In this document: positions 2,527 through 30,425 of the stretch, piece after piece
Layout: the number at the start of each line of letters is the position of its first letter
Numbering within the stretch: the stretch's first letter is position 1
Assembly (NCBI GenBank): GCA_033549365.1
Contig: JAWSUF010000006.1
Coordinates: 141,472 to 205,471 of the forward strand
DNA length: 64,000 bases
Direction: 5' to 3'
Origin: Acidobacteriota bacterium
GTDB lineage: Bacteria; Acidobacteriota; Aminicenantia; Aminicenantales; Saccharicenantaceae
Translations under genes and position numbers: made by a program
Notes under the pieces: model-generated
The model's input: only the letters and a program-made list of their open reading frames with translations
What the model was told of the DNA's origin: nothing
The model's database searches: none

Positions 2527-3762
2527 TTATTCGTTTTCACGATCCTCCCAAGCAGTCTTTCGTTTCACCCGATCCATGAGAAACCGCACACCTAGGTTGT
2601 CCGACGGGTTCAGCCAGAGCATCTTCTCAAATATGTGCGCCGCCGCGTCAAAGCGTCCAAGACGCCAGAGACACAATCCATAGCCGTGCATGCAGCGCAG
2701 AAATGGACGGTTGTCGATAAGGCCCCACGCCAGCACGCCGGAAAAACCGTCACCCAAAGACAGCTCGCCGATACGCAAACCGACTTCGTAATGGTGGACG
2801 GCATCCTGGGGATGGTGGTCAAAGACGAAATTGCCCAGATGCGAATGGGCATCGAGGCAGCGCAGGTCCGCCTGGCACAGCTGCATCAAGATCTTTTCCG
2901 CCTCATCCCGCTCGCCGGCATCTTTGAGATCATTGGACCTTGTGATGGGGTCATTGAAAGGATCATCAGGGTCCTCGCCGGGCAGTACCTGCTCCATCTC
3001 GAACATGGGGCGGGGGCCGTGGGCGATGATCGGCTTGGCCCATTCCTCGATGGGTTCGCCTTCTTCTCCCCAGTACTCTTCCTTGGGGTCCCACATGCCC
3101 ATCTCTTCGAGCTCCAGTGGTACGAGATCGAGGGCCTTCACGTCGATTCGAGTCGACTGAACCTCGCCGGCGAGATACGGATGACCGCCGTAACGCCACT
3201 GTTTTCCTGGCTTGACCGTGACGATGGCGCCAGGCACCACCTCCCAAAGGCGGCTTGCGCGCAGGGTAATGATCCGGTCGCTTTTCAACAAACGGCACCG
3301 GGCGGCTCGCCCCGTGACAGATAGGGCGACCAAATCAACGGGTTTGCTCAGGTCGATGTCATCATCTGCCGCCTTGTGCTGCCGCCCGCGTCGGGAAGTT
3401 TTCTTGTTTTCGACAGGGTAAGGATCGAGGTTGAGCCACCTGCGGTAGGCGGCGATGTAACCCGCCATTGCCGATGCCTGCGGCAACACGACCTCGGAGA
3501 GCGAAATTACATATTCCGACCCGTCCTCCCGGCGGCAATTGGCCGTCAGACCGCGCCGTTCTTTACCGTCGTAGTCCACCGCGATCACCGAAACCGGTTC
3601 CCCGATGACGAAACCGTCGGCCGGTAGCGCAACGTCATCCTCAAAGGCCTGCCGAAAAGCCCAGAGCTGTTCATCATTGCCGTATGCGTCGACGGTGATT
3701 TCCTCAATAAGTCTGTCCAAGGCTTCGAGCCTCTTACCCTCTTTGGGGTTTCGCGTGCCCAT
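2527..3762 (-). CDS. Uncharacterised protein (411 aa), last gene of the hsdMS-linked unit; acidic central region, TPR-like C-terminus
   Basis: Long ORF with a 3-nt gap to the upstream gene (3766). No motif I can assign. The C-terminal WRLGRFDAAAHIFEKMLWLNP looks TPR-like. Confidence 0.5.
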   Translation of the reverse strand: MGTRNPKEGKRLEALDRLIEEITVDAYGNDEQLWAFRQAFEDDVALPADGFVIGEPVSVIAVDYDGKERRGLTANCRREDGSEYVISLSEVVLPQASAMAGYIAAYRRWLNLDPYPVENKKTSRRGRQHKAADDDIDLSKPVDLVALSVTGRAARCRLLKSDRIITLRASRLWEVVPGAIVTVKPGKQWRYGGHPYLAGEVQSTRIDVKALDLVPLELEEMGMWDPKEEYWGEEGEPIEEWAKPIIAHGPRPMFEMEQVLPGEDPDDPFNDPITRSNDLKDAGERDEAEKILMQLCQADLRCLDAHSHLGNFVFDHHPQDAVHHYEVGLRIGELSLGDGFSGVLAWGLIDNRPFLRCMHGYGLCLWRLGRFDAAAHIFEKMLWLNPSDNLGVRFLMDRVKRKTAWEDRENE

Positions 3763-3765
3763 CTT

Positions 3766-4920
3766 TTATTGATCCTTCCAGATACCGGCCTTCACCAGCC
3801 GTTGAATCAGCGACTTACGCCGCAGGTGGCCGCCCATGAACTTTGTAAATTCTTGTTGAAATTGCTTTTTGGTCGCGAACAGTTCATGGGCTTCGGCGAT
3901 GTCAACGAGTATGCGGCAGGCTTCGTCGTACCCCTGCCCCGATCCGCGCTCGATGGGTTCTCGAACCGACGCCCAGGCTTTGGGAAAATCGTTGGACAGG
4001 TTGTCCAGATACGCCCTTCGTTTCTCGCGGTGCTTGATCTCCTGTTTCTCGCGGTCCCGTTTTTGTTTCTCCAATCTGATCTGGCAGGCTTTTTCAGCGT
4101 TCTGCCGCAATTCCCCCACCGTGCGCCGGGATGCGTCGGTATCGCCCGTCTGAAGGCTGTGCCGCCATGCCTCAAAACGATTCCTGAGGGATCGTTCGGC
4201 CTGCAACCCTTGGCCCTTCAGCAATTGCTTCAGGATCGGATTGACTTCATCCCGGGGCAGGGATTTTATCCACCTCTCCATTTCCGCTTGCGAAATTACC
4301 ACCTCTTGTGCAACCTGACTGCCCATGCCGGCGCCCGCTAGCAGGTCCGGGTCCACTTCGAGGAATTCGGCCAGTGCCCGTTGGGCTGCCGTGAGGTTTC
4401 CCAATCCGCTCACGGATACTGGCTCGGTCTCTACGTCATCCATCATCTCCCCGGCCACGGCCATCAACCATCCGACATACAGACTGCGCAAGTCCCCGCG
4501 CAGCAGTTCCTCCCGCACCGGGGCCAGACGCGCCATCCAGCCCCGGCCGTCCTCCATGCCGAAGCGGTCGTAGTTTTCCGACTCCTCCAGGCTCCAGGTA
4601 ATCATCCAATGGGTCTTGGTGGCCTTGATATCCAACAGGTAAGGCACGGCCGCAGCTTTGGCGGTCTCTCGGGTCAATGCCTCGATGGGCAGCCGCACCA
4701 TGAAAATGGCCGTCATCCAGTTGGCCACATAGACATGGGCGTCGAAATAGCGCTGCATCAACTTGTGGGGGTCGCCTTTGAAATCTCCCCAATTGTATTC
4801 GTTGGTGAAGCTGACCGGCGTGATCGTGGCCCGCATGGAAAGCGCCCGCAGCTCTTCCATTTCATCCGCTGTCAGAGGCCGGTCAATGGCCAGAAACTCG
4901 TAGTATTGGTATTCGCTCAT
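3766..4920 (-). CDS. Uncharacterised protein (384 aa) in the hsdMS-linked unit
   Basis: ORF MSEYQYYEFLAIDRPLTADEMEELRALSMR..., 21-nt gap to the upstream AlbA_2-ATPase gene. No recognisable catalytic motif. Lys/Arg/Glu-rich coiled-coil-like C-terminal half. Confidence 0.5.
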   Translation of the reverse strand: MSEYQYYEFLAIDRPLTADEMEELRALSMRATITPVSFTNEYNWGDFKGDPHKLMQRYFDAHVYVANWMTAIFMVRLPIEALTRETAKAAAVPYLLDIKATKTHWMITWSLEESENYDRFGMEDGRGWMARLAPVREELLRGDLRSLYVGWLMAVAGEMMDDVETEPVSVSGLGNLTAAQRALAEFLEVDPDLLAGAGMGSQVAQEVVISQAEMERWIKSLPRDEVNPILKQLLKGQGLQAERSLRNRFEAWRHSLQTGDTDASRRTVGELRQNAEKACQIRLEKQKRDREKQEIKHREKRRAYLDNLSNDFPKAWASVREPIERGSGQGYDEACRILVDIAEAHELFATKKQFQQEFTKFMGGHLRRKSLIQRLVKAGIWKDQ

Positions 4921-4941
4921 GGCTCTATTAGTGTGTTTTTC

Positions 4942-6336
4942 TCATTCGATCACTTCCCAGTAACCACCTTTGGCTGGACCGATGCGTCGAAGTAGGCCCT
5001 GGTCCTGCAATTTGCGGATATTTCTTTCGATGGAACGCTCGGTCACGCCAATTAAACGCGCCAGTTCCGGTATGGTTAAATTTTCCTCTTGCTTTAATAT
5101 ATCCAGAATTTTCCCCGACGTTTTCCCCGACGTTTTCCCCGACGTTTTCGGTGGTTTCGCGACCAGTGTAAGTTCTCCAACCGGTTTTCGATGCACCGTA
5201 GCGGTGAAACGGCAGCCGTCACGATCATCAGTAAAATCGATCTTCGGCCAGGCATCCAGTGCCCGTTGTATGCCCGAACCCAAACCATGATAAGGCAGCA
5301 GTCCCTTGGCCACATACGAAACCAGAATTGGATTGCGGATGTTCGAATTTCCGGCCAGTATCTTTTCCACCGTCAGATTGTCCGGCAGATGGCCGGGACT
5401 GACGATCTCGATGCGGTTGTCGAAAATAAACAGGCGAACCGATGCACTTACCAAATAGTCACGGTGTACCAAGGCGTTCACTAAAAGTTCCTCAAAAACG
5501 CTTTCCGGAATTTCGGGCAATCCGGGGGCGTTCACACCTCGGCCGGCCTGAATCTTGTGGAGATTTCGCATGACGAACGCAAGGGCATCGTCGAAAATTT
5601 TCTTGAGTGGGCCGACAAAATCTTCGGTATCCACATAGTCGGTGACATGAATCTTGTTGCCCGGATATCGGATGGCCTTGACCACGAACTGGGGTTTTAT
5701 CCATTCCGGGCGTTCGGCGAACATCAGCACCCCGGCCAGGTTCAGCATGCCCTCATCAGTTGCAAGATTCATGTTCTGCAGCAACCGTAACAACTCCGAA
5801 GGCTCCTCCGGGAATTTGCGCTTGTAGACATCGCGCAGAAAGTCTTGAAACCTAAGCTTGTCCAGAGCCTCCACCCCGGCCTTGGTGGGCAGTTCGTCGG
5901 CATGGAACTGGCCGGAGACCTGAAAAAGCCTGCGCAGTTCTTCTTTGGAATTCACCCGCCGTTTGTCCGCGCCCACCTTCAGCCAAATCACACCGTTTTT
6001 ATCGAAATAGGGCTTGTCGATCCCCTTGGGCATAGTGACCACAATCACCACTTTTCCGCGGCCCACAGAGACGTTTTCAGTTTGCGGAGAAATGGGGCTG
6101 CGCACATGTTGGCTGGCCGCGTTGCTGATCAACTGGTTTATCCGGCTGACCTCGGACCGGGAAATTCCTTCCAACTCGCCATTATCCCCAATACCGATCA
6201 GAATACGACCGCCCTCACAGTTGGCAAACGCCGCCATCTCCGCTGCAAGCGCATCCACATTGCGCACATCCGCCTTGAATTGGAGGCGGCTGTCTTCGCC
6301 ATGTGCGACAAGTTTTCGGAGGTTGGAGGTATTCAT
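4942..6336 (-). CDS. AlbA_2 (Schlafen-like) DNA-binding domain + HATPase_c_4-type ATPase + C-terminal winged-HTH protein ('divergent AAA / RecG-C-terminal-like putative regulator')
   Basis: N-terminus RLQFKADVRNVDALAAEMAAFANCEGGRILIGIGDNGELEGI is typical of the AlbA_2 (PF04326) family. The C-terminus LTIPELARLIGVTERSIERNIRKLQDQGLLRRIG is a wHTH. A (TSGK)3 linker is encoded by an in-frame 12-nt tandem repeat. Confidence 0.65.
   Translation of the reverse strand: MNTSNLRKLVAHGEDSRLQFKADVRNVDALAAEMAAFANCEGGRILIGIGDNGELEGISRSEVSRINQLISNAASQHVRSPISPQTENVSVGRGKVVIVVTMPKGIDKPYFDKNGVIWLKVGADKRRVNSKEELRRLFQVSGQFHADELPTKAGVEALDKLRFQDFLRDVYKRKFPEEPSELLRLLQNMNLATDEGMLNLAGVLMFAERPEWIKPQFVVKAIRYPGNKIHVTDYVDTEDFVGPLKKIFDDALAFVMRNLHKIQAGRGVNAPGLPEIPESVFEELLVNALVHRDYLVSASVRLFIFDNRIEIVSPGHLPDNLTVEKILAGNSNIRNPILVSYVAKGLLPYHGLGSGIQRALDAWPKIDFTDDRDGCRFTATVHRKPVGELTLVAKPPKTSGKTSGKTSGKILDILKQEENLTIPELARLIGVTERSIERNIRKLQDQGLLRRIGPAKGGYWEVIE
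5109..5144. repeat. Perfect 12-nt tandem repeat x3 (ttttccccgacg) inside the AlbA_2-ATPase CDS, encoding (SGKT)n on the minus strand
   Basis: ttttccccgacg|ttttccccgacg|ttttccccgacg followed by ttttcg. In-frame (12 nt), so copy-number change adds or removes 4 aa without a frameshift. Confidence 0.9.
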
Positions 6337-7919
6337 TAAATCGGCGCTCCAGCACCTCGCAGGATCGCGATGATTTCAGACTTTACTTTATTCGGGATCT
6401 CAGCAGCCTGAGAAATAAGCACATATTTAAATGTCGTGAGGTCAAACGGCACCGCTTCATTCCGTTTTTGCGGTTCAAAAAGAAAGATGAGCCGGTTTTT
6501 TTCGTGATGCTTGAGGGCGAAACCAGCCTCGACAAAAACATTGGGACGTTGACCGGTCAGGTCGCAAATGATGATATCGGACGATGCGATGGCTTCGTAC
6601 ATGCGGTGATGGATCGGAAACGCGCCGCCTTCTTCGGTGCCCATGTCGATCAACTCAAGATTGATTTTATGATCCCTTTCTATGGCCGACAGTGTTCCCT
6701 TGAGTTGCTGGAGGCGCAAGTTTGCCTTGTTAAAGGCGTTATGCTTTGCCTCTTGGGATGGATACCAGCGCGCGAGAAATACCCGTTTGGGTACCCGCTG
6801 TTGAGCGGCCTTGAAGGTTTCCAGAAGTTGTTTGGCTGGAGAAAGCGGATCAAGCAGGCTGGTAATTCCCTCTGCGCCAAGCCATAGGCCGATGCGATCC
6901 AACAAACCCACGGCGGCATTCACTCGTTCGTCGTGGGTATTCCCGGTGCTCTCACGCCAGACGCGGGCGGCCAATTCCAGAAAAGCGTAAGTCTGGCAGA
7001 GTGAGGGGTGCTGGAATGTTAACCGGGTCAATATGTCGGCCAGGGCCGCAAAAAGCTCATCGGCAAAGGTGGTCAGAGCTGCGCGGTTTTCTGTCATGGT
7101 CGGGTCCATTTGAACCAGATTTCGTGCCGCTTCCCATAGCGAAGTCAATGGACGAAAACCAAACCTTTGCCGGACCTGTTCAGGCAAGTTGTTCAAATGC
7201 CTGCAAAGCAGGCGGGTCAGGTGCAAGTCGGGGCTGTACGCGAACTCATTGTCCGGTGTCATGGCATGGGCCGGGTCCTGCCCCAGCAAAAGCCGCAATC
7301 CGTGTTCCGATTCAAGCGTTAGAGCGGTGCTGTTGATGGTGTGGAAGATCAACGATTCGGCGTAATCGTCAGCATCATTATCAGAGGGCCCCAACAAGAT
7401 AAGACAAAAGGGGGCTAAATACTTGGTGGGAACGATTTGATCTTCCTCAAGGGTTTCGGCCATTGCCAGCCGGTGATTGCCGTCGATACGGCGAACCATT
7501 TTTTGTTCCTTGACGGCCTCCAGATCGCTACGCTGAATCCTGATCTGTTGAACCCGTTGATGCTTGCCGGCAAATCGGCGACTGACGGCAATCAGCGCCC
7601 TCTCCCCGGTTCCAACACCGATAACTCTTTCTTGCTCGGTCACATTATTAAAAACACCACGAACGGACAGAATGATTTCCGGGATGAGCCGGTTGTCGCT
7701 TTGTTCAAGGTATTTCTTGATGTCCAGGGCATGCCTTTCGTTCAATTGGCGCTGGTGGCCGACTACCCGCCCCGCCTCGGCTCCTTCATTTAGCTCATAG
7801 GGAACCGAAATCGCCGCCAAATCCCGTAAATCGGCAAAACCTCGAATGATTTTGAATATACCCAATACCCCTTCAGCGAAGTAACCCTCGAATTCGATGG
7901 TTTGGCTGACTGTGGGCAT
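6336..7919 (-). CDS. Fusion protein: N-terminal ParB/Srx-fold (DGQHR/DndB-like; motif IDGNHRL) domain + C-terminal nucleoside 2-deoxyribosyltransferase/DNPH1-like (Ndt-like) Rossmann domain
   Basis: 527-aa ORF. Residues ~40-60 RVVGHQRQLNERHALDIKKYL and ~150 VRRIDGNHRLAMAE match the DGxHR box of ParB-like nuclease/NTPase domains (ParB DGHHR, DndB DGQHR). The C-terminal SDIIICDLTGQRPNVFVEAGFALKHHEKNRLIFL resembles the Ndt/DNPH1 catalytic-Glu segment (D.GT.FE.GyA.a.GK). Start overlaps the stop of the upstream gene by 1 nt. Confidence 0.6.
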   Translation of the reverse strand: MPTVSQTIEFEGYFAEGVLGIFKIIRGFADLRDLAAISVPYELNEGAEAGRVVGHQRQLNERHALDIKKYLEQSDNRLIPEIILSVRGVFNNVTEQERVIGVGTGERALIAVSRRFAGKHQRVQQIRIQRSDLEAVKEQKMVRRIDGNHRLAMAETLEEDQIVPTKYLAPFCLILLGPSDNDADDYAESLIFHTINSTALTLESEHGLRLLLGQDPAHAMTPDNEFAYSPDLHLTRLLCRHLNNLPEQVRQRFGFRPLTSLWEAARNLVQMDPTMTENRAALTTFADELFAALADILTRLTFQHPSLCQTYAFLELAARVWRESTGNTHDERVNAAVGLLDRIGLWLGAEGITSLLDPLSPAKQLLETFKAAQQRVPKRVFLARWYPSQEAKHNAFNKANLRLQQLKGTLSAIERDHKINLELIDMGTEEGGAFPIHHRMYEAIASSDIIICDLTGQRPNVFVEAGFALKHHEKNRLIFLFEPQKRNEAVPFDLTTFKYVLISQAAEIPNKVKSEIIAILRGAGAPI

Positions 7920-9284
7920 TTAAATATCCTCCACGGGCCGTGTACCAAGGAGCATTTGCTCGACCCCGCTCGTTGCTTTTCCCAATAGTTCTTTTGATGC
8001 AGCTCTTAGCGACGCTGCTTTCAGGCGTTCTTGCATTGTTTTTTTTATCAGTTTTTGCTGAACATTGAGATTTGGAAGTGGTAACTTAAGTGACTGGATT
8101 TCTGTGCTATTTATGTTCGCCTGACCAATGATCTGCCTACTAAGGGCATTAATCTGCAGGCGACCGATTGGACCGTTAATTGCAAAAGCAACAAAATGTG
8201 GATCAGCTTTTTCGGGATCTACTCGCAATCGAATAAGATACGAGGCGAAAATGTAGGTCTCTTTCTTGTCAAAAACAGCACATTTACCCACAAGCTCCTT
8301 GCTATTTGTCCTGTTGATAAGAATATCCCCGCTGATAAGCTTAAGACTTTCTTCGATAACTTTTGATACTTTCAGATGTTTCAAATTTGATATATCCAAA
8401 TCACCGTCAACAATGTTATTCATACGGATAACACAAACCCCTTCCCCATTTGAATTTGTTTTTTCGCTTGTCCCATATTGAACGAGATCAAGAATTGCCC
8501 CTAATTCGACAATGGGGAATTTACCTTTTGTGAGGTCCATAATTGTGCTTGCGGCTTGATTGTAGCTTACACTCCATCGATCAAAATCCTTCCATTGCCC
8601 AATAATTAATTTATCAGATTTCTGGTTTTTAGGCATAGAAAGGCCAAGTTCTTGAATGAAAATTCGCATGGATTCGTCTATGGTGGCTTTAGACTTATCT
8701 TCCAATTGGATAGCTTCTGCGACAGCCGATTCCCAATATGTCACTATCTTTTTCTGAACTGAAAGTGGTGGGATCGGTATCTTTAAGGTTTCAAGAAGCG
8801 GATAAGTCAAATTCATCCTTACAGAGCCAGCAGTTGCGGCGCGCAAGGTTTGATTAAAAAATGCAGACTTTAATATAAACCAAAAAACTTCGGGAAGAAC
8901 GACGGCCTTATCAACCGAAAAAACGACGTAAGCCGGACTTATGAATGCGCCATCATGTTCCTGTGGTACCCGACCTATTGATCCGACGTTTATACGGTAT
9001 GGGTTGTAGGCAAAGTCACCCGCACTGACCTTTTTGTAGGGTTGTTTGATGTCTTTTCCCTGTGCGTCATAAGCATGGAAAATTCCATTAGTGTTGTTCA
9101 CCCCAAGTATCTTAAAGGATTCTCGTGGTGAATCATAAGGACGTATTTTTTCGTTATGTTCAGTGACGAATTCGGCAAGAGACACCAAAGGGAACTTTGA
9201 TTTTATCTTCGTTAAAAAATATTTTACGTCCCAACGTTCTAAGTCAGTAAAGCTTATTATGCGGGGTGTGGCCATTCCCATCAC
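7920..9284 (-). CDS. hsdS: Type I restriction-modification specificity subunit HsdS (two target-recognition domains)
   Basis: 454 aa. Duplicated architecture with conserved HsdS segments (…IPIPPLSVQKKIVTYWESAV…, …LPLPNLNVQQKLIKK…, ILINRTNSKELVGKCAVFDKK). Markedly AT-rich relative to neighbours. ATGA-type overlap with hsdM. Confidence 0.85.
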   Translation of the reverse strand: MMGMATPRIISFTDLERWDVKYFLTKIKSKFPLVSLAEFVTEHNEKIRPYDSPRESFKILGVNNTNGIFHAYDAQGKDIKQPYKKVSAGDFAYNPYRINVGSIGRVPQEHDGAFISPAYVVFSVDKAVVLPEVFWFILKSAFFNQTLRAATAGSVRMNLTYPLLETLKIPIPPLSVQKKIVTYWESAVAEAIQLEDKSKATIDESMRIFIQELGLSMPKNQKSDKLIIGQWKDFDRWSVSYNQAASTIMDLTKGKFPIVELGAILDLVQYGTSEKTNSNGEGVCVIRMNNIVDGDLDISNLKHLKVSKVIEESLKLISGDILINRTNSKELVGKCAVFDKKETYIFASYLIRLRVDPEKADPHFVAFAINGPIGRLQINALSRQIIGQANINSTEIQSLKLPLPNLNVQQKLIKKTMQERLKAASLRAASKELLGKATSGVEQMLLGTRPVEDI

Positions 9285-11542
9285 TCAGATCCTCCAGCCC
9301 CGGCAAAAGCTTTGGGATCGAGCAAAAACTCCCGGAACCATTCCAGGCAGGTCTTTTCGATCCTTTTCGGTTGATTTGCATTTGGATAGAGCTCGTTCTG
9401 CCCTTCCTCACCGGTGGCGGATATACCGACCTTATCTGCCTCATACATAAAAATGGGATAATCAAAACGCTCTTTTAATAGCTGTCGAGATTCGGCGGCT
9501 TTCTTCCCCTCCATCTGCTTGAGGAAATCCTTAAGCTCCTTTTGTAGCAATTTACGGCTTTCGGCATCTTTTTTTTCCTTAGCGTTTGCAATGGCGCCCT
9601 CAAGTCGCTGGGTTTCCGCAGCGATCTCGTCAGCATATTTGGCTTCAATTTCCGCTATCGCAGCGACATAGGTCTTATCAAATCGCTCTTTTTGCTGATC
9701 TGAATATTTCTGCAAGAACAGCAGAGATGCCTTTACACTGGCTCCGGAAGAGATGAACGTCTCTTGCGGCAGACTGACCACGGCCTTAAGATAGGCTCGG
9801 TCTTCGACAAATTGCCGTACATAGGCCAGCGAAGGATTGTTATAGACCCCTTCGGGGAGAACGATGCCCATGCGTCCCCCGGGTTTGAGCAAGTCCAGGC
9901 ATCGTTCTACAAAAAGGATTTCGGTTTTTATCTTGGATTCATTACTCTTTGGCAGGTCGAACAGACTGGCAATGGGTTTATTGATGGCGGACTTTACCCG
10001 CGCCTGGGCTTCTTTATAAGGCTCGCCGAACTCACGCACATAGCGGCGCTCATCTGAATCCTTCACTGCAATGTCGGATTCAAGCACCTTGTCCGAGGGC
10101 TCCACGTTTGCGCCAAAAGGGGGATTGGTGAGGACAATATCGAAGCGGGTTTCAAAGATGCCGTTGACGTTTAGAAAGCCGTCATGATGATGGACCCCGC
10201 CATGACCATCACCGTGCATGATCATGTTCATTTTGCTGGTACGGGCCATGCGGTCGTTGGCATCCGTGCCGAAAATGCAGCGGTTGGCCAGATTCCAGAG
10301 GCGCGAGCCTTCGTTGGATTGATCTATGGTTTGCTGGATCTCATCAAATTTTTCCTGAAGCAATTTGGCCCGCTTGGTGTCTGTAAGGGACTTGTCCTTT
10401 TCAACCTTTGCCCGAAAATCGTTATACTGTCGGTCGGCATCGGCCAGGATTTTTTCACGCACGATCTCAAATACCCGAATCAGAAATCCGCCGGACCCGC
10501 TGGCCGGATCGCAGACCACCTCGCCCTCCTGGGGATCGATCATGTGCACCATGAACTCCACGATGGTTCGAGGAGTAAAAAACTGACCGATTTCTCCGCG
10601 AAAGGTACGCCCCAGAAAGCGTTCAAAAGCCACACCTTTGATATCCTCGCTGGTATCGGAAAGGTTGTATTTTTCAAGTTTGCGAACAATCTCTTCGCCC
10701 GTGGCCGGTTTCAGGTTGATCCGTTCATCATCGTCGAAGATTTTATCCGCGGAATAGGATTTCTTGGTTTCCTGGAATAACGTGTCCAACGGGTTTTCGG
10801 CAATCTGCCGATTGAGCACATCAACGGTAAAGAGGTTTTCCTTACTGCGGCGGGTAAGTAGTTTACGTTCCACATATACTTTTACGAAAAGGATCTTGGC
10901 GATTTCATCAAAGGCGGCGGCCGGGTCTTTTTTTTCCCGGTTGCGGATCACGTTGTGGCATTGGTGCAGCAAGTCGGCAAACTCTTTCTCTTTGAACACG
11001 CGCAATTTCGAGAACAACTCCTCGATTTCCTTGTCCGTGGCATCGACATGGGGGATGTTCTCGATTTCTTCTATGTAGCCGGGCATCCGGTCTTTCTTGA
11101 CACGCCAGTATTTGGTTTCCCGGGAATTGTGGGTGACGAAAAAAGGCGCATCGGTCATACGGGCATAGTGTTCTCCCTGAGAATAGTCCTGGGCCTTAAT
11201 GGTCACATTGTCCGATTTGCACTCTATAATGATAAACGGGGCTTTTTGAGCGGTTTTGTCCTGGGGGCTGCGCCATATCACAAAATCCGCCCGTGCCTGG
11301 GCGCTGCCGCGACCGGAGACATCCATCTCCTCTGAGATCTGGTCCAGGATGTAACCATATTCCTCGGTCAAAACGAGCAAGTATTCCTGACGAACGCGTT
11401 CTTCAGGGGTGAGCGGCAGCCATTTTCGTCGCACCGGGCTGAAGATCTGGCTGCCTTTGACTTGGATTTCATCCGCTTTTACATAATTTTTTTTGGCCAC
11501 GCATCGCTCCCCATATCGATCATAATTTGTCATTTTCGGCAT
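9281..11542 (-). CDS. hsdM: Type I RM N6-adenine DNA methyltransferase HsdM with N-terminal PD-(D/E)xK HSDR_N-type domain (753 aa)
   Basis: MTase motif I (VCDPASGSGGFLI) and motif IV (LTNPPFG). N-terminal ~170 aa (EERVRQEYLLVL…ADFVIWRS…APFIIIECK) matches the HsdR N-terminal PD-(D/E)xK nuclease-like domain with a D…E-x-K arrangement. Confidence 0.85.
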   Translation of the reverse strand: MPKMTNYDRYGERCVAKKNYVKADEIQVKGSQIFSPVRRKWLPLTPEERVRQEYLLVLTEEYGYILDQISEEMDVSGRGSAQARADFVIWRSPQDKTAQKAPFIIIECKSDNVTIKAQDYSQGEHYARMTDAPFFVTHNSRETKYWRVKKDRMPGYIEEIENIPHVDATDKEIEELFSKLRVFKEKEFADLLHQCHNVIRNREKKDPAAAFDEIAKILFVKVYVERKLLTRRSKENLFTVDVLNRQIAENPLDTLFQETKKSYSADKIFDDDERINLKPATGEEIVRKLEKYNLSDTSEDIKGVAFERFLGRTFRGEIGQFFTPRTIVEFMVHMIDPQEGEVVCDPASGSGGFLIRVFEIVREKILADADRQYNDFRAKVEKDKSLTDTKRAKLLQEKFDEIQQTIDQSNEGSRLWNLANRCIFGTDANDRMARTSKMNMIMHGDGHGGVHHHDGFLNVNGIFETRFDIVLTNPPFGANVEPSDKVLESDIAVKDSDERRYVREFGEPYKEAQARVKSAINKPIASLFDLPKSNESKIKTEILFVERCLDLLKPGGRMGIVLPEGVYNNPSLAYVRQFVEDRAYLKAVVSLPQETFISSGASVKASLLFLQKYSDQQKERFDKTYVAAIAEIEAKYADEIAAETQRLEGAIANAKEKKDAESRKLLQKELKDFLKQMEGKKAAESRQLLKERFDYPIFMYEADKVGISATGEEGQNELYPNANQPKRIEKTCLEWFREFLLDPKAFAGAGGSE

Positions 11543-12242
11543 AACTGAAATAGCTGGTTCCGCCGCCGATGATAATGTGATCCTGGAACACCAAATCCAA
11601 AAGCCCGGCGGCTTGCTTCAATTCCTGGGTCGTCTTGTCATCGGCGGGGGAAGGGCTCGGATGCCCAGAAGGATGGTTGTGCGCCACGACGAAGGCGCTG
11701 GCTGACACACGCAAGGCTTCTTCCATCACACGCCTTACATAGACAGTGGCTTGCGTTGGGATGCCCTCCGTAATGAGCCTTTCAGCAAGCATGCAATTCT
11801 GGCCATCCAGGAGGATGGATAGAAAGCATTCCTGGCGCTGACCTTCAAATCGTGGGCGAATGTAATCAACCACCGCCGCAGCATTGGTGAAATCCTTGGG
11901 TCGGGTTGATTGTCTTCGGACTCTTTTGCCAATTTCAATGGCGGCTTTCATTTGCGCCACCTTGGCGATACCCATTCCCGGGATGGCGAGAAGCTCCTCT
12001 ATGTGAGCGCGGTCGATACCGCTTATACCGTTAAACATAGACATCAACCGGCGGGCCAGATCTTCTGCCGATTGTCCCGCTTTACCAATGCGAAGCAAAA
12101 TCGCTAGAAGTTCCCCATCTGAGAGGCCTTCAGCACCTGAATGGAGGAGTTTCTCTCGTGGGCGTTCGGTCACAGGCCAATCCTTGATAGCTTGGCGTTT
12201 AGATTTATGTACCCCGTTTGATGTAGTTTGGCCCTTAACCAT
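11520..12242 (-). CDS. radC: RadC-like JAB/MPN (JAMM) domain protein
   Basis: 240 aa with an HhH-like N-terminus and the JAMM motif AFVVAHNHPSGHPSPSPADD. Overlaps the hsdM start by 23 nt. Confidence 0.8.
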   Translation of the reverse strand: MVKGQTTSNGVHKSKRQAIKDWPVTERPREKLLHSGAEGLSDGELLAILLRIGKAGQSAEDLARRLMSMFNGISGIDRAHIEELLAIPGMGIAKVAQMKAAIEIGKRVRRQSTRPKDFTNAAAVVDYIRPRFEGQRQECFLSILLDGQNCMLAERLITEGIPTQATVYVRRVMEEALRVSASAFVVAHNHPSGHPSPSPADDKTTQELKQAAGLLDLVFQDHIIIGGGTSYFSYAENDKL

Positions 12243-12465
12243 TTTCGCTCCCCGAAAGATCCAACGCTCCGTCCGTCTTCATTCTTTCACAGAACGCATC
12301 CAACTGCGCCTGGGCCAGTTTAGACGGCTTGGCCTGACCATTTTCCCAGCGATTAACCGTGGCATAGCTCACACCCAACTCGCGAGCCAAATCCTCCTGG
12401 CTAATGGCAAGCTGTCGGCGAACCTCCTTAACTAATGCCGGGTAATCCGGATGGATTGGTTTCAT
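12235..12465 (-). CDS. XRE-family helix-turn-helix transcriptional regulator
   Basis: LVKEVRRQLAISQEDLARELGVSYATVNRWENGQAKPS is a classic XRE HTH. ATG at 12463-12465 is preceded by AAGGA. The ORF-track TTG start at 12492 is less likely. 8-nt overlap with radC. Confidence 0.65.
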   Translation of the reverse strand: MKPIHPDYPALVKEVRRQLAISQEDLARELGVSYATVNRWENGQAKPSKLAQAQLDAFCERMKTDGALDLSGSENG

Positions 12466-12504
12466 CACATCATCCTTTAGAGCGATATCCAACGGTAATA
12501 ATGA

Positions 12505-13223: not shown

Positions 13224-13336
13224 CAACGAAATGCGATGCGGTGAAGAAGTTCTCGGAGGCGGAAATTGCGAGGCGGTCATCGAAAAGTCAGCAGACAAAA
13301 AAACAGCAAGGCGTTTTCGACGTCGGCGGGAATGCC

Positions 13337-27224: not shown

Positions 27225-30200
27225 TCAGCAGACGGCGGATCCCCCCAGAGGAAGTTCCCGGGCCGGGTCGGACGTTCCTTGAATTTTTGCGGCAAACTCG
27301 TTCTTTCCTGAAGCCAGGTCCTCGTCATTGAGGATGTGAACATCGAGCAGGCCTTCGGAGCGAAACCCGGTCCTGTAGGCGTTGGCTTCGGCCAGGGACT
27401 GGCTCCAACCCTGAAGCCACGACTCCAGCGCCTGTCTCCGGCGGGCATCGCCCTGAAATCGAACAATGAGGTTGATATCGCTGTTGGGACCGGCCGTGCC
27501 GTTGCACGTGCTTCCAAAAACATATAACGCCTTGATCCCCATGGCTTCAGCGTCCGCCCGCCGGGCCATCTCCTCGGCCATGTGCATCCGCCATCGGGAA
27601 TGCTCCTTTCTTTCCTCGATGACGGACGTTCCCGCCCCGGCCAGCATCCGCCGCGGGCAGGTCGGGTCGACAAACATGCCGACAGCCTGCTCCCGTTCGG
27701 CGTTCATCAGCACCCGAAGCACCCGGCCCTCCTCGGAAGCCGGAACATCAATGACCCGGAGGGTATCGGACAGCGCCGCGAATTCCGGCAGAATCTCCTC
27801 GAGGATATTGGCCGACCCCAGAAGGAAGGTTTCATTGAAACGCACGCCGTCGTCATCGGGGTAGAGCGGGAGATAGCGGATTCCCGATTCGACGAGGTCC
27901 TGGAAGAAATGCGTTCCGAAAGAGACATCGGGGACGTAGTTGCCTTTTTTTCGCGCCACCTCGACCAGCAGGGCCGTGTTGCTGATATCGGAATAGGTCA
28001 CCCGTACGCCCAGCTTGACATCGCCGCGGCTGCCCCACCGTCCCGGCCCCATCAGGATGAACTTCTTCCGCGGGAGAAGCTTGTTGAGCTTGCCGACGGC
28101 CTGTCCGACAGCCAGCAGGTCGGAAAAGGCGCCGATGTCGCCGTATTTTCCGGGATCGACATAGACGATGTGGGTGATGTCGGGGACGCTTCCGTTGGAG
28201 ACGAATTTTCCGGCCGTGAAAAGAACGCTTTCGTCGGGAATATGGGCCGGAATGTCCATGGCCGCATCGTCGGACGAAAAGCTCTGGGGCCGGCATTGCA
28301 GCAGGTAAAAATTGTCCCCGTCGGAGGCGAATTCAATATCCACGGGGACTCCCAGAGCCGCCTCCAGAGTTTTAAGGATGGCGTCGACCTTGGAGACAAA
28401 GGGCGTTCCCGCAATCAACCCGTCGAACGTGGCCACGGCGTCTCCGGCCCCGAGATTCGTGGCCAGACCCATGGGCTTCTGAAGAATGCCGTCACGATGG
28501 ATCGAAAAGACACGCGAGGCTGCCGGAAAGGCGTGGCCCACTTCCTTGAGCAGGGTTTTGATGTCGAGCGTGACAAAGGCGTTATTTTCCAAATCGATGA
28601 CGTCGATCCGCCGGGGCGAATAACGGAGGACGTCCTCGATCGAAACATTGACTTTCAGGTTGGGCTTGCTCGGCGCGATCAACACCGGGTAATCGTCGCT
28701 CACCCGGTCCACCGCCCGCGTGCCCAGGCCCGGAACGATGCGCAACAGCCCGTCCTCCCGGCCGATGCGCGGCGACCAGCGGAACTCGTTGCGGCTGAAA
28801 GCCACGCCGGCGAAGGCCGGGAAAAAATACCGGCCCACGCGACGGCCGACGACCTCCTGGATCATGATGCCCATCTCTTCGTAGAAATCGAGAAGGCCGC
28901 GCTCGGCCCGATAGGCGATCGGATCGGGATTGAAAATCGAGGCATAGACCTCGGCAACGGCGTCGAGAAGCGCCTCGAGGCGCTTCTCCTTGTCACCCTG
29001 ATTGGCCAGGAAGAGGCTTTTGTACTTTCCGGCGAAAGCCGTCCCCAGACGGTCCTCGAGCAGGCTCGAGCTCCGGACGATGAGCGGGACATCTCCGAAA
29101 TCGTCGAGAGCGACGGACAGGCCCTTGACGATTTCCTGGGGGAAGGTCGAGTTTTTGAACAATTGGACGATATGGGGGTATTCCTGGCGGATGATATCGA
29201 TGTCCTTGTACTTCTGTTCGGAGACTTCCTCGAGGTTGTTGTAGTGCTGGAAATAAATGATCCCGTCTGATGTGATGTACCAGGTTTTGGGCGTCTTGAT
29301 CTCTCCGACGGCCTTGACCCGGCGCGCGGACTGGCGAAGAATCCTTGAAGCCAGAAACAGTCCGGCGCTTTTCCCGCCGAGTTTGCCGTGGCTTCCCGGC
29401 GGATAGATCAGGCGTTCGGTGAGCCCGAAGAAATCCTCGATCGACAGGTATTTCTTGGCGATGTTGATGTACTCGAGCTGCTCGTTGAAAAACCGGCGGA
29501 TCAGGGAAACACGGACGCTGTTGGTCTTCGATCTCGGCAGAACCACCCCCCGGGGCATCAAACGCTGGCAATGCTGCATGGACTCGATGACTTCGCTCAG
29601 GGTCGCGTAGACGTTCTCCATGGACTTAACGGCGCTGTAGGAGCGTTCTTCGCCGATCCACTTCTGGATGCGGTCGAAGATTTCCTCCTCCGTCAGGTTG
29701 GCTGCGGCGATGCGGAACGTCTCCTCGCTCAACTCGAAAAACCGGCCGAGCGAATCCCGCCTCTGCGGCAGGTTGGATTCGCTGAAAACGCCGGTGCTCT
29801 CGCGGTCTTCGCCGAAACGCTGGAGAAGATTTTTGGCTGCGGGGACGCCCCGCCAGGCCAGGTAGTTCATCATCTTGCGCGAAACGCGGATGAAAAGCTT
29901 CGGATCTGTATTGCGCAGGAGATCGAGAGCCAGATTCCAGCCGGGTTTCTCCTCCCCCGGCTCCTGCCGCTCCTCGAACATGTGTCTGAGCCTCTGATGG
30001 AGGATGAAATGGCCGATGCGTTCGGCGATCGTATGAAGAAGCTTCGTTTCTCCCTTGAGAAACGGACCGTCATCGGCCTCGGGGACAGGCTCCCGGTAGG
30101 AAACGCAGAGCCGCCCGACAGGGGCATCCTGGACGCGGATCTCCGCGCACTGCGAATAGAGCGTTTCCACATAATCTTGAGACTCGAAGACTTCCGTTCC

Positions 30201-30425
30201 GTGAATGATCTGGGCCTGGACGTATTCCGGATACTGCCAGCCCGTCGGGACGGCCGCGATGACGTAGCGGAACACTTCCTCAAGGGGCAGGTCGTAATGA
30301 CTGAGAATCTCCTCGATCCGATAGAGGCAGCTCAGCTCCTTGGCCCTCTCGTGGAGAGTGGAAAAGAGCGTTTGGGCCTTTCCGCCGCCGTCCTGTTCTT
30401 TCATGGCGTTCGATCCTTTCCCCAA
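27225..30425 (-). CDS. Large (1066 aa) PEP-utilising/pyruvate-phosphate-dikinase N-terminal (PPDK_N, ATP-grasp) domain protein with C-terminal minimal nucleotidyltransferase domain
   Basis: Central region with PEP synthase/PPDK nucleotide-binding motifs (LIVRSSSLLEDRLGTAFAGKYKSLF…, MIQEVV). C-terminal GSTCNGTAGPNSDINLIV is the Pol-beta-like NTase signature (GS…D.D). Confidence 0.6.
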   Translation of the reverse strand: MGKGSNAMKEQDGGGKAQTLFSTLHERAKELSCLYRIEEILSHYDLPLEEVFRYVIAAVPTGWQYPEYVQAQIIHGTEVFESQDYVETLYSQCAEIRVQDAPVGRLCVSYREPVPEADDGPFLKGETKLLHTIAERIGHFILHQRLRHMFEERQEPGEEKPGWNLALDLLRNTDPKLFIRVSRKMMNYLAWRGVPAAKNLLQRFGEDRESTGVFSESNLPQRRDSLGRFFELSEETFRIAAANLTEEEIFDRIQKWIGEERSYSAVKSMENVYATLSEVIESMQHCQRLMPRGVVLPRSKTNSVRVSLIRRFFNEQLEYINIAKKYLSIEDFFGLTERLIYPPGSHGKLGGKSAGLFLASRILRQSARRVKAVGEIKTPKTWYITSDGIIYFQHYNNLEEVSEQKYKDIDIIRQEYPHIVQLFKNSTFPQEIVKGLSVALDDFGDVPLIVRSSSLLEDRLGTAFAGKYKSLFLANQGDKEKRLEALLDAVAEVYASIFNPDPIAYRAERGLLDFYEEMGIMIQEVVGRRVGRYFFPAFAGVAFSRNEFRWSPRIGREDGLLRIVPGLGTRAVDRVSDDYPVLIAPSKPNLKVNVSIEDVLRYSPRRIDVIDLENNAFVTLDIKTLLKEVGHAFPAASRVFSIHRDGILQKPMGLATNLGAGDAVATFDGLIAGTPFVSKVDAILKTLEAALGVPVDIEFASDGDNFYLLQCRPQSFSSDDAAMDIPAHIPDESVLFTAGKFVSNGSVPDITHIVYVDPGKYGDIGAFSDLLAVGQAVGKLNKLLPRKKFILMGPGRWGSRGDVKLGVRVTYSDISNTALLVEVARKKGNYVPDVSFGTHFFQDLVESGIRYLPLYPDDDGVRFNETFLLGSANILEEILPEFAALSDTLRVIDVPASEEGRVLRVLMNAEREQAVGMFVDPTCPRRMLAGAGTSVIEERKEHSRWRMHMAEEMARRADAEAMGIKALYVFGSTCNGTAGPNSDINLIVRFQGDARRRQALESWLQGWSQSLAEANAYRTGFRSEGLLDVHILNDEDLASGKNEFAAKIQGTSDPARELPLGGSAVC

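Follow-up and report, generated by a model that had tools for sequence, protein, structure and literature searches.

The 64,000-nucleotide stretch analysed here (hereafter the window; positions 141,472–205,471 of contig JAWSUF010000006.1, assembly GCA_033549365.1, from an Acidobacteriota bacterium) carries eight tightly packed minus-strand genes at 2527–12492, as read from a table of its open reading frames (ORFs). A first-pass annotation had taken them for a single Type I-derived defence system without HsdR, and its gene map holds: all eight are contiguous where it placed them, with overlaps or gaps of at most 21 nt, and its domain calls for a helix-turn-helix (HTH) protein, a RadC/JAB protein, HsdM, HsdS and an AlbA_2–ATPase–winged-HTH protein were reproduced by profile searches with Pfam, PADLOC and NCBIfam. 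Three of the genes, which encode a long HsdM (9281–11542), HsdS (7920–9284) and a fusion protein of 527 amino acids (aa) with DGQHR/ParB-like and NDT-like parts (6336–7919), form the trio (M–S–527) that concerns us most.

HsdM, 753 aa as annotated, matches the Pfam families HSDR_N_2 (1.8e-23) and N6_Mtase (7.8e-36) and, over its full length, the PADLOC model MTase_I (PDLC03018, 775 bits). Alignment with homologues suggests that its true start is the GTG at 11500 rather than 11542, which would give a protein of 739 aa; this GTG has a GGGGAG Shine–Dalgarno sequence and lies 19 nt past the RadC stop codon. An N-terminal PD-(D/E)xK nuclease domain, recognized already at first pass as being of the HSDR_N type, is followed by a gamma-class N6-adenine methyltransferase (motifs GSGGFL and NPPF). 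The nuclease motif residues (PEE46–48, with E47/E48; D86; E107-C-K109) are at least 95% conserved among 49 locus homologues, and the motif is kept in 118 of 119 database homologues. The best sequence match in the PDB is the Type IIB enzyme RM.BsaXI (4.7e-27), and the long HsdM would be in effect a restriction–modification (R-M) fusion, of the kind represented by Type IIB enzymes, the Zymomonas HsdMSc and MAD2 of the MADS system. M and S are themselves fused in one ORF of about 965 aa in a Caulobacteraceae metagenome-assembled genome (MAG; locus L026, 7082–9976), and likewise in a database protein of 967 aa (P0342).

The first-pass statement that no HsdR lies in the unit or its flanks is borne out, in that no superfamily 2 (SF2; DEAD/ResIII) HsdR occurs among the large ORFs of the window; nor was a full-length HsdR present in main-clade loci, where large ORFs lying up to 10 kb from the trio were screened, those of 600–850 aa only in part by Pfam. 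In the MAG of a Nitrospiraceae bacterium (L042, 5241–6302) the long M is directly preceded by a 353-aa ORF that matches only residues 8–366 of a Type I HsdR and is a truncated remnant of one. The locus thus has the two-target-recognition-domain (two-TRD) HsdS and the N6-adenine methyltransferase HsdM of a classical Type I R-M system, but membership of that class was rejected because the window holds no HsdR. The absence itself is less remarkable than it had at first been taken to be, since the intact nuclease is carried by M, an arrangement shared with Type IIB enzymes, HsdMSc and MAD2. HsdR-less ‘Type I’ M–S pairs are usually dismissed as orphan methylases, and here one large family of them has a conserved nuclease of its own.

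Three known groups resemble this M–S pair. In Type IIB enzymes whose S subunit is a chain of its own (BcgI, BsaXI), a single polypeptide likewise combines the nuclease with the gamma-class N6-adenine methyltransferase, the HsdS-like subunit has two TRDs and there is no SF2 motor, and the window M and S have just this division into chains; they differ in that the window nuclease is of the N-terminal HSDR_N_2 type and in that a conserved third gene, the DGQHR–NDT fusion, stands beside M–S. We know of no Type IIB system with a third gene of this kind. By domain content, the pair is also like HsdMSc of Zymomonas mobilis ZM4 (ZMO1934/ZMO1933), an HsdR_N–HsdM plus HsdS without HsdR that methylates its target and restricts conjugated plasmids about 5-fold per site, independently of plasmid-encoded HsdR (PMC8432527); HsdR_N–HsdM fusions are already treated there as motor-less, HsdR-independent restriction enzymes. 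Finally, the MADS system (mad1–mad8) has an Xre HTH protein (mad1), an HSDR_N_2–N6_Mtase protein (mad2) and an S subunit (mad5), again without HsdR, and its defence is based on methylation. MADS differs in that its partner protein is not the same as the 527-aa protein, and the locus was not assigned to it: the window proteins score far below the NCBIfam cut-offs (305 bits against 720 for MAD2, 40 bits against 400 for MAD5), and MAD6, MAD7 and MAD8, mandatory in the published MADS model, are absent, with no match to MAD3, MAD4 or MAD6–8 among ten proteins of the locus and its neighbours.

HsdS (454 aa) contains two Methylase_S stretches (Pfam) and matches the PADLOC model Specificity_I (PDLC03148) over residues 9–446 with 374 bits. 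It is hypervariable between loci (median identity 30%), M being 55–94% identical inside the main clade, and such hypervariability looks typical of an arms race. The hsdS gene, which has the lowest GC content in the island (0.41), is translationally coupled on both sides, the junction with hsdM being a GTGA-type overlap, as read from the sequence, and that with the 527-aa gene a TAAATG with a gap of 0 nt.

The 527-aa family has no above-threshold model in Pfam, NCBIfam, PADLOC or PHROGs, yet the first-pass reading of a ParB-like/NDT-like fusion finds support in weak sub-cut-off matches to DGQHR/DpdB and TIR/NDT-like profiles and in conserved motifs. When 64 sequences, clades of 27% identity among them, were aligned, each of its N-terminal motifs (QR56–57, D146-G-N-H-R150 and F192-H-T-I-N196) proved at least 95% conserved, and QR, a DGQHR pentapeptide and FxxxN are the signature motifs of the DGQHR/DndB/DUF262 domain of the ParB superfamily (PMC4619093). 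The pentapeptide is DGNHR here, with N in place of the Q of DGQHR, and the profile matches of the N-terminus are weak (NCBIfam TIGR03187, 2e-8 and 34 bits against a cut-off of 58.85; PADLOC DpdB, E = 6e-3). With all three motifs present, we take the N-terminal domain to be a probable member of the DGQHR/DndB/DUF262 (ParB/Srx) superfamily.

A helical middle region leads to a C-terminal domain of approximately residues 377–527, in which FLARWYP381–387, D453, N460, E464, G466 and A468 are invariant in the same alignment and which likewise has only weak, sub-cut-off matches to TIR/NDT-like profiles. It has a flavodoxin-like fold and the D...(N/D)xxxExGxA motif of the NDT/DNPH1/MilB superfamily. 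In an AlphaFold2 (AF2) model of moderate confidence (pLDDT, the predicted local distance difference test score, 75; pTM, the predicted template-modelling score, 0.48) the C-terminal third superposes best on nucleoside 2-deoxyribosyltransferases (NDTs) and DNPH1, in keeping with an NDT/DNPH1/MilB/TIR-like fold, and the N-terminal region, modelled with mixed confidence, has weak Foldseek matches to DndB-like, ParB and DUF262 viral models. Against PDB sequences the family gave only marginal DNPH1 matches, by profile as well as by sequence search. NDT-family enzymes use a covalent deoxyribosyl–Glu intermediate, and motif and fold together suggest E464 as the counterpart of their catalytic Glu.

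Close homologues of the 527-aa protein (64–98% identical) number more than 600 and occur in Desulfobacterota, Pseudomonas, Zhongshania, Geobacteraceae, Dehalococcoidia and the Firmicute Metallumcola; identity between phyla is about 65%. Only 518 relatives, 68 of them with E < 1e-30, came out of an exhaustive search through 1.84 billion cluster representatives. The trio is not obviously phage-borne, since a scan of viral contigs with the 527-aa protein yielded only four distant matches of 23–27% identity.

The genomic contexts of these proteins set the limits of the system. One genome per GTDB species was scanned with exact peptide patterns, which gave 72 loci from more than ten phyla, of which 59 (non-redundant and with at least 3.8 kb of upstream DNA) were used for upstream counts. 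The 527-aa homologue has a long M and an S directly upstream in 46 of these 59 and a canonical Type I M–S–R in seven, while the remaining six are truncated, rearranged or decayed copies. Every retrieved context of a close homologue has the 527-aa gene directly after hsdS and a gene for an HSDR_N_2–N6_Mtase protein of about 735 aa, and the identities of M and of the 527-aa protein to their window counterparts co-vary (Spearman 0.95). The trio persists in a Clostridial clade of 27–31% identity, where an HSDR_N_2-type M still lies upstream. In other Clostridia/Bacillota loci (L065, L070, L073, L076, L078–L080, at about 4000–11450, and L058) 527-aa homologues follow directly on complete Type I operons, made up of an HsdM_N-type M, S and an EcoR124-type HsdR; these homologues have about 28% identity in the N-terminal half and 41–44% in the C-terminal third.

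Starting from homologues of M, we found three further loci. One (L170) is RadC–M–S–527, and the other two lack the third gene: L169 (7001–10569) has M–S only and lies on a contig that resembles a mobile element and also carries Bro-N, a Dam-type methylase and two AcrVA2-like genes, and L171 (7001–15913) has M–S followed by DUF4238 and then Gabija (GajA/GajB). The M proteins of both are 78% identical to the window M and have intact nuclease motifs. Because M–S occurs without the 527-aa gene, while distant 527-aa homologues follow M–S–R, the dependence appears to be one-way: the 527-aa protein probably needs a Type I-like methyltransferase complex, and that complex is probably not dependent on the 527-aa protein. 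The patchy distribution across phyla is presumably horizontal. Beyond the trio the order of genes breaks down, as the following gene differs almost everywhere among relatives (a dGTPase-like HD protein, a DUF4062–NACHT protein, AAA_21/AAA_15 ATPases of ABC/OLD type, or DUF5655). We conclude, with a probability of about 0.9 for this architectural conclusion, that the gene run is a composite defence island set between housekeeping genes and that its functional core is an HsdR-less three-gene R-M module.

What had been proposed as one HsdR-less defence system therefore survives for M–S–527 and fails for the three genes further downstream, which encode the AlbA_2 protein (464 aa) and two proteins of 384 and 411 aa: only the 527-aa gene is co-conserved with hsdMS, and homologues of the other three were found in none of the 72 surveyed genome loci. 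That they should be additional effectors of the HsdMS unit is suggested by the window itself, where they continue the run on the same strand and the AlbA_2 gene (4942–6336) overlaps the stop codon of the 527-aa gene by 1 nt (TAATG), with gaps of 21 nt from AlbA_2 to the 384-aa gene and 3 nt from there to the 411-aa gene; the closest relative (L083) also has a 444-aa AlbA_2 relative two genes downstream of its trio. Set against this are the empty count, the variable slot after the trio and the composition of the run, in which the GC content at third codon positions (GC3) is 0.38–0.61 from the HTH gene through AlbA_2 but a host-like 0.69–0.72 in the 384/411 pair (flanking genes, 0.69–0.75). The eight-gene model is largely refuted by this synteny survey, and we find it barely credible; the tight packing of genes in a single window had overstated the size of the system. 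The AlbA_2 (Schlafen-like) protein, in which Pfam also finds HATPase_c_4 and a winged HTH, is better seen as common defence-island cargo, outside the conserved core.

The 384-aa gene (3766–4920) and the 411-aa gene (2527–3762) are also found elsewhere. The 384-aa family has more than 4300 homologues, 78–85% identical across Desulfobacterota, and we gathered 80 metagenome loci around such homologues (L089–L168), 61 of them with room for the 411-aa gene, which lies directly downstream in 34 of the 61. Upstream, an AlbA-like gene is present in 18 of the 80 and the gene otherwise varies; an HsdM-like match, weak, partial and of 22% identity, occurs near the 384-aa homologue in just one. In Desulfosarcina ovata (L084) the pair adjoins AbiEi/AbiEii and an integrase, with no hsdMS. 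Since it recurs without hsdMS in Desulfosarcina and in the metagenome loci, the pair is an independent module, possibly one that serves defence or belongs to a mobile element. As the first-pass annotation had it, both proteins are uncharacterised: Pfam, NCBIfam, PADLOC and PHROGs gave no match for the 384-aa protein and a faint TPR match alone for the 411-aa protein, a viral-contig scan with the former returned nothing, and its AF2 model has a pLDDT of 50. The 384-aa protein has the sole 100% database match to any window protein (P0121, from an Acidobacteriota-labelled MAG), and close relatives of the island genes otherwise belong to Desulfobacterota in nearly all cases. Four metagenome loci (L136, 489–2724; L097, 1284–4066; L137; L147) carry deletion scars. 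In L136 the HTH gene and RadC up to codon 80 run straight into the final approximately 95 codons of the 527-aa gene, after which come AlbA and, further on, the 384-aa gene; the same island therefore exists with the M–S–527 trio excised.

How the trio might work is less certain than what belongs to it. Our preferred reading, held tentatively and at slightly under even odds, is that the 527-aa protein is an accessory effector, in the style of PrrC or RloF, of the M–S(–R) complex. The M2S complex would methylate host sites and would cut unmodified DNA through M's own nuclease, its bipartite target being set by the two TRDs of HsdS. The ParB-like NTPase domain of the 527-aa protein would couple it to the R-M complex or to DNA and gate the C-terminal glycosidase; when the complex meets unmodified DNA, or when a phage anti-restriction factor disables it, the glycosidase would cleave N-glycosidic bonds of NAD+ or of nucleotides, and their depletion would amount to a second-line or abortive-infection response. 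If true, this would be a new case of restriction backed by metabolite-depleting abortive infection, and a new sensor–effector fusion.

Several points weigh against the accessory-effector reading. The domain assignments of the 527-aa protein depend on sub-threshold profiles, motifs and the moderate-confidence model described above; with regard to activity, complex formation and phage phenotype, the family is known from sequences alone; and the glycosidase might act on NAD+, on nucleotides or on DNA. The exact-pattern survey may have missed divergent 527-aa relatives in other contexts, and the M–S loci without a 527-aa gene number only two, one of them on a mobile element, where the loss could be secondary. 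Finally, the identity of about 65% between phyla and the strict coupling of the 527-aa gene would fit an obligate core subunit equally well.

This last possibility is the chief rival, in which a methylation-based system of MADS or BREX type would have the 527-aa protein as its obligate restriction arm: M2S would only mark self and read unmodified sites, and the ParB-like NTPase would stand in for the HsdR motor by loading on or sliding along foreign DNA, the nuclease of M and/or the glycosidase being the executor. ParB proteins are NTP-gated DNA clamps, every full-length 527-aa homologue has M–S upstream, translational coupling is tight, the two proteins co-vary as noted, conservation between phyla is what a subunit of a fixed complex should exhibit, and MADS demonstrates that an HSDR_N–M plus S can rely on other proteins for defence. 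We nevertheless consider it rather unlikely, as M–S pairs with an intact nuclease motif exist without the 527-aa gene, distant 527-aa homologues accompany complete M–S–R operons that already have a restriction arm, and Zymomonas HsdMSc restricts, with no partner gene mentioned in the available part of its description (PMC8432527). The strict link to a sequence-specific DNA-recognition complex, the weak DpdB match of the N-terminal domain and the invariance of Glu464, the putative counterpart of the Glu that forms the covalent intermediate in NDTs, are also consistent with action on DNA itself, whereby the NTPase, like DpdB with the DNA transglycosylase DpdA, would help the NDT domain to remove bases or swap them at M2S target sites or close by; the outcome would be either a second modification or, in unmodified DNA, abasic lesions. 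Such a protein would amount to new restriction chemistry, but we think it improbable: the structural neighbours whose activity has been characterised (NDT, DNPH1, MilB, TIR) all have free nucleosides, nucleotides or NAD+ as substrates, and not DNA, no additional DNA-binding domain was detected in the 527-aa protein, and the DpdB match reaches only E = 6e-3. A variant that we would rate just as improbable joins the two ideas, in that an NTP-gated clamp loaded by M2S at unmethylated sites would replace the HsdR motor and deliver the glycosidase, giving restriction by deglycosylation and a protein-fusion analogue of DpdA/DpdB.

A role outside defence has precedents, in that DndB reportedly exerts negative control over its own modification operon (PMC10853773) and that a Type I methyltransferase of Pseudomonas aeruginosa PAO1, part of an HsdMSR system whose M architecture was not compared with ours, has regulatory roles and incomplete methylation (PMC5358918). 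M–S would then serve as an orphan or epigenetic methyltransferase, its methylation tuned by the 527-aa protein in the role of a DndB-like regulator or of a nucleotide-salvage enzyme. This seems very improbable to us given the conserved PD-(D/E)xK catalytic residues on M, the hypervariable HsdS, the island-like low GC3, the defence genes that fill the adjacent slot in relatives and the patchy, horizontal distribution across phyla.

Returning to the accessory-effector reading, its nearest models are PrrC, RloC and RloF, each an NTPase with a toxic effector whose gene directly adjoins hsdS or hsdR and whose action relies on the R-M complex; RloF belongs, like the 527-aa N-terminal domain, to the DUF262/ParB superfamily, and such proteins have been described within Type I loci (RloF, PMC4619093; COG1479, PMC3632139). 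The differences are that the effector of the 527-aa protein is a predicted NDT-like N-glycosidase rather than an anticodon nuclease or HNH nuclease, that its NTPase is of DGQHR type (as DGNHR) rather than ABC-type, and that its usual partner is an HsdR-less M–S. Neither the ABC-type ATPase nor the anticodon-nuclease domain of PrrC/RloC was detected in the locus proteins by Pfam, PADLOC or NCBIfam, and the resemblance to PrrC/RloC would be functional and positional only. SspE, GmrSD and BrxU (DUF262 NTPase plus DUF1524 nuclease), together with DndB and DpdB, likewise have a ParB/Srx domain with QR, DGQ(H/Q)R and FxxxN coupled to a DNA-modification module. By comparison, the C-terminal domain of the 527-aa protein has a glycosidase fold and not a nuclease, and its associated modification is predicted to be N6-methyladenine made by a Type I-like M–S and not phosphorothioation or 7-deazaguanine. 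The glycosidase part has its own relatives among defence effectors with a flavodoxin-like N-glycosidase fold and a catalytic Glu, namely the NDT effector of retron Ec86/Eco1 and the TIR and DUF4062 NADases, from which it differs in being fused to a ParB-like domain and tied to R-M instead of a retron, CBASS or Thoeris sensor. The retron Ec86/Eco1 effector hydrolyses NAD+. Papers on this retron describe the effector as nucleoside-deoxyribosyltransferase-like.

HsdR-less M–S pairs and ParB-superfamily genes within Type I loci are thus already known. Their combination in an M–S–(DGQHR–NDT) trio appears to be undescribed in the searchable literature and profile libraries. ZMO1932, the neighbour of hsdSc in Zymomonas, and PA2735–PA2732 of P. 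aeruginosa PAO1 are candidates for the same system.

Upstream of the trio, the run begins with an Xre-type HTH protein of 85 aa (12235–12492; Pfam HTH_3, 4.6e-12), a possible controller of the operon, and a RadC-like JAB protein of 240 aa (11520–12242; Pfam RadC, 8.9e-36, with UPF0758_N; NCBIfam RadC, 2.1e-60). RadC, a frequent but optional companion of the trio, immediately precedes M in 13 distinct loci out of about 47 related ones; HTH homologues are upstream of RadC in a minority of loci, and the HTH gene is likewise optional. The housekeeping genes on either side are a SAM (S-adenosylmethionine)-methyltransferase and DUF6498 on the left and, on the right, a sigma-70 factor, DnaJ, DnaK and an RND efflux system.

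Promoter and terminator scans of the gene run gave nothing better than shuffled sequence, and a repeat search found no convincing island-boundary repeats. A 20-nt direct repeat, identical at 18 of 20 positions (2095–2114 and 13306–13325), does bracket the whole island, its copies 11.2 kb apart, and is probably due to chance because the left copy lies inside the SAM-methyltransferase gene. Within the AlbA_2 gene a perfect 12-nt tandem repeat (5109–5149; three overlapping 17-nt copies) encodes a KTSGKTSGKTSGK linker ahead of the winged HTH, and may be a slippage-prone tract. Elsewhere in the window, on the minus strand at 27225–30425, a 1066-aa ORF joins a PPDK_N domain (phosphoenolpyruvate-utilising, ATP-binding) to a C-terminal Pol-beta-type nucleotidyltransferase, which is an unusual fusion.

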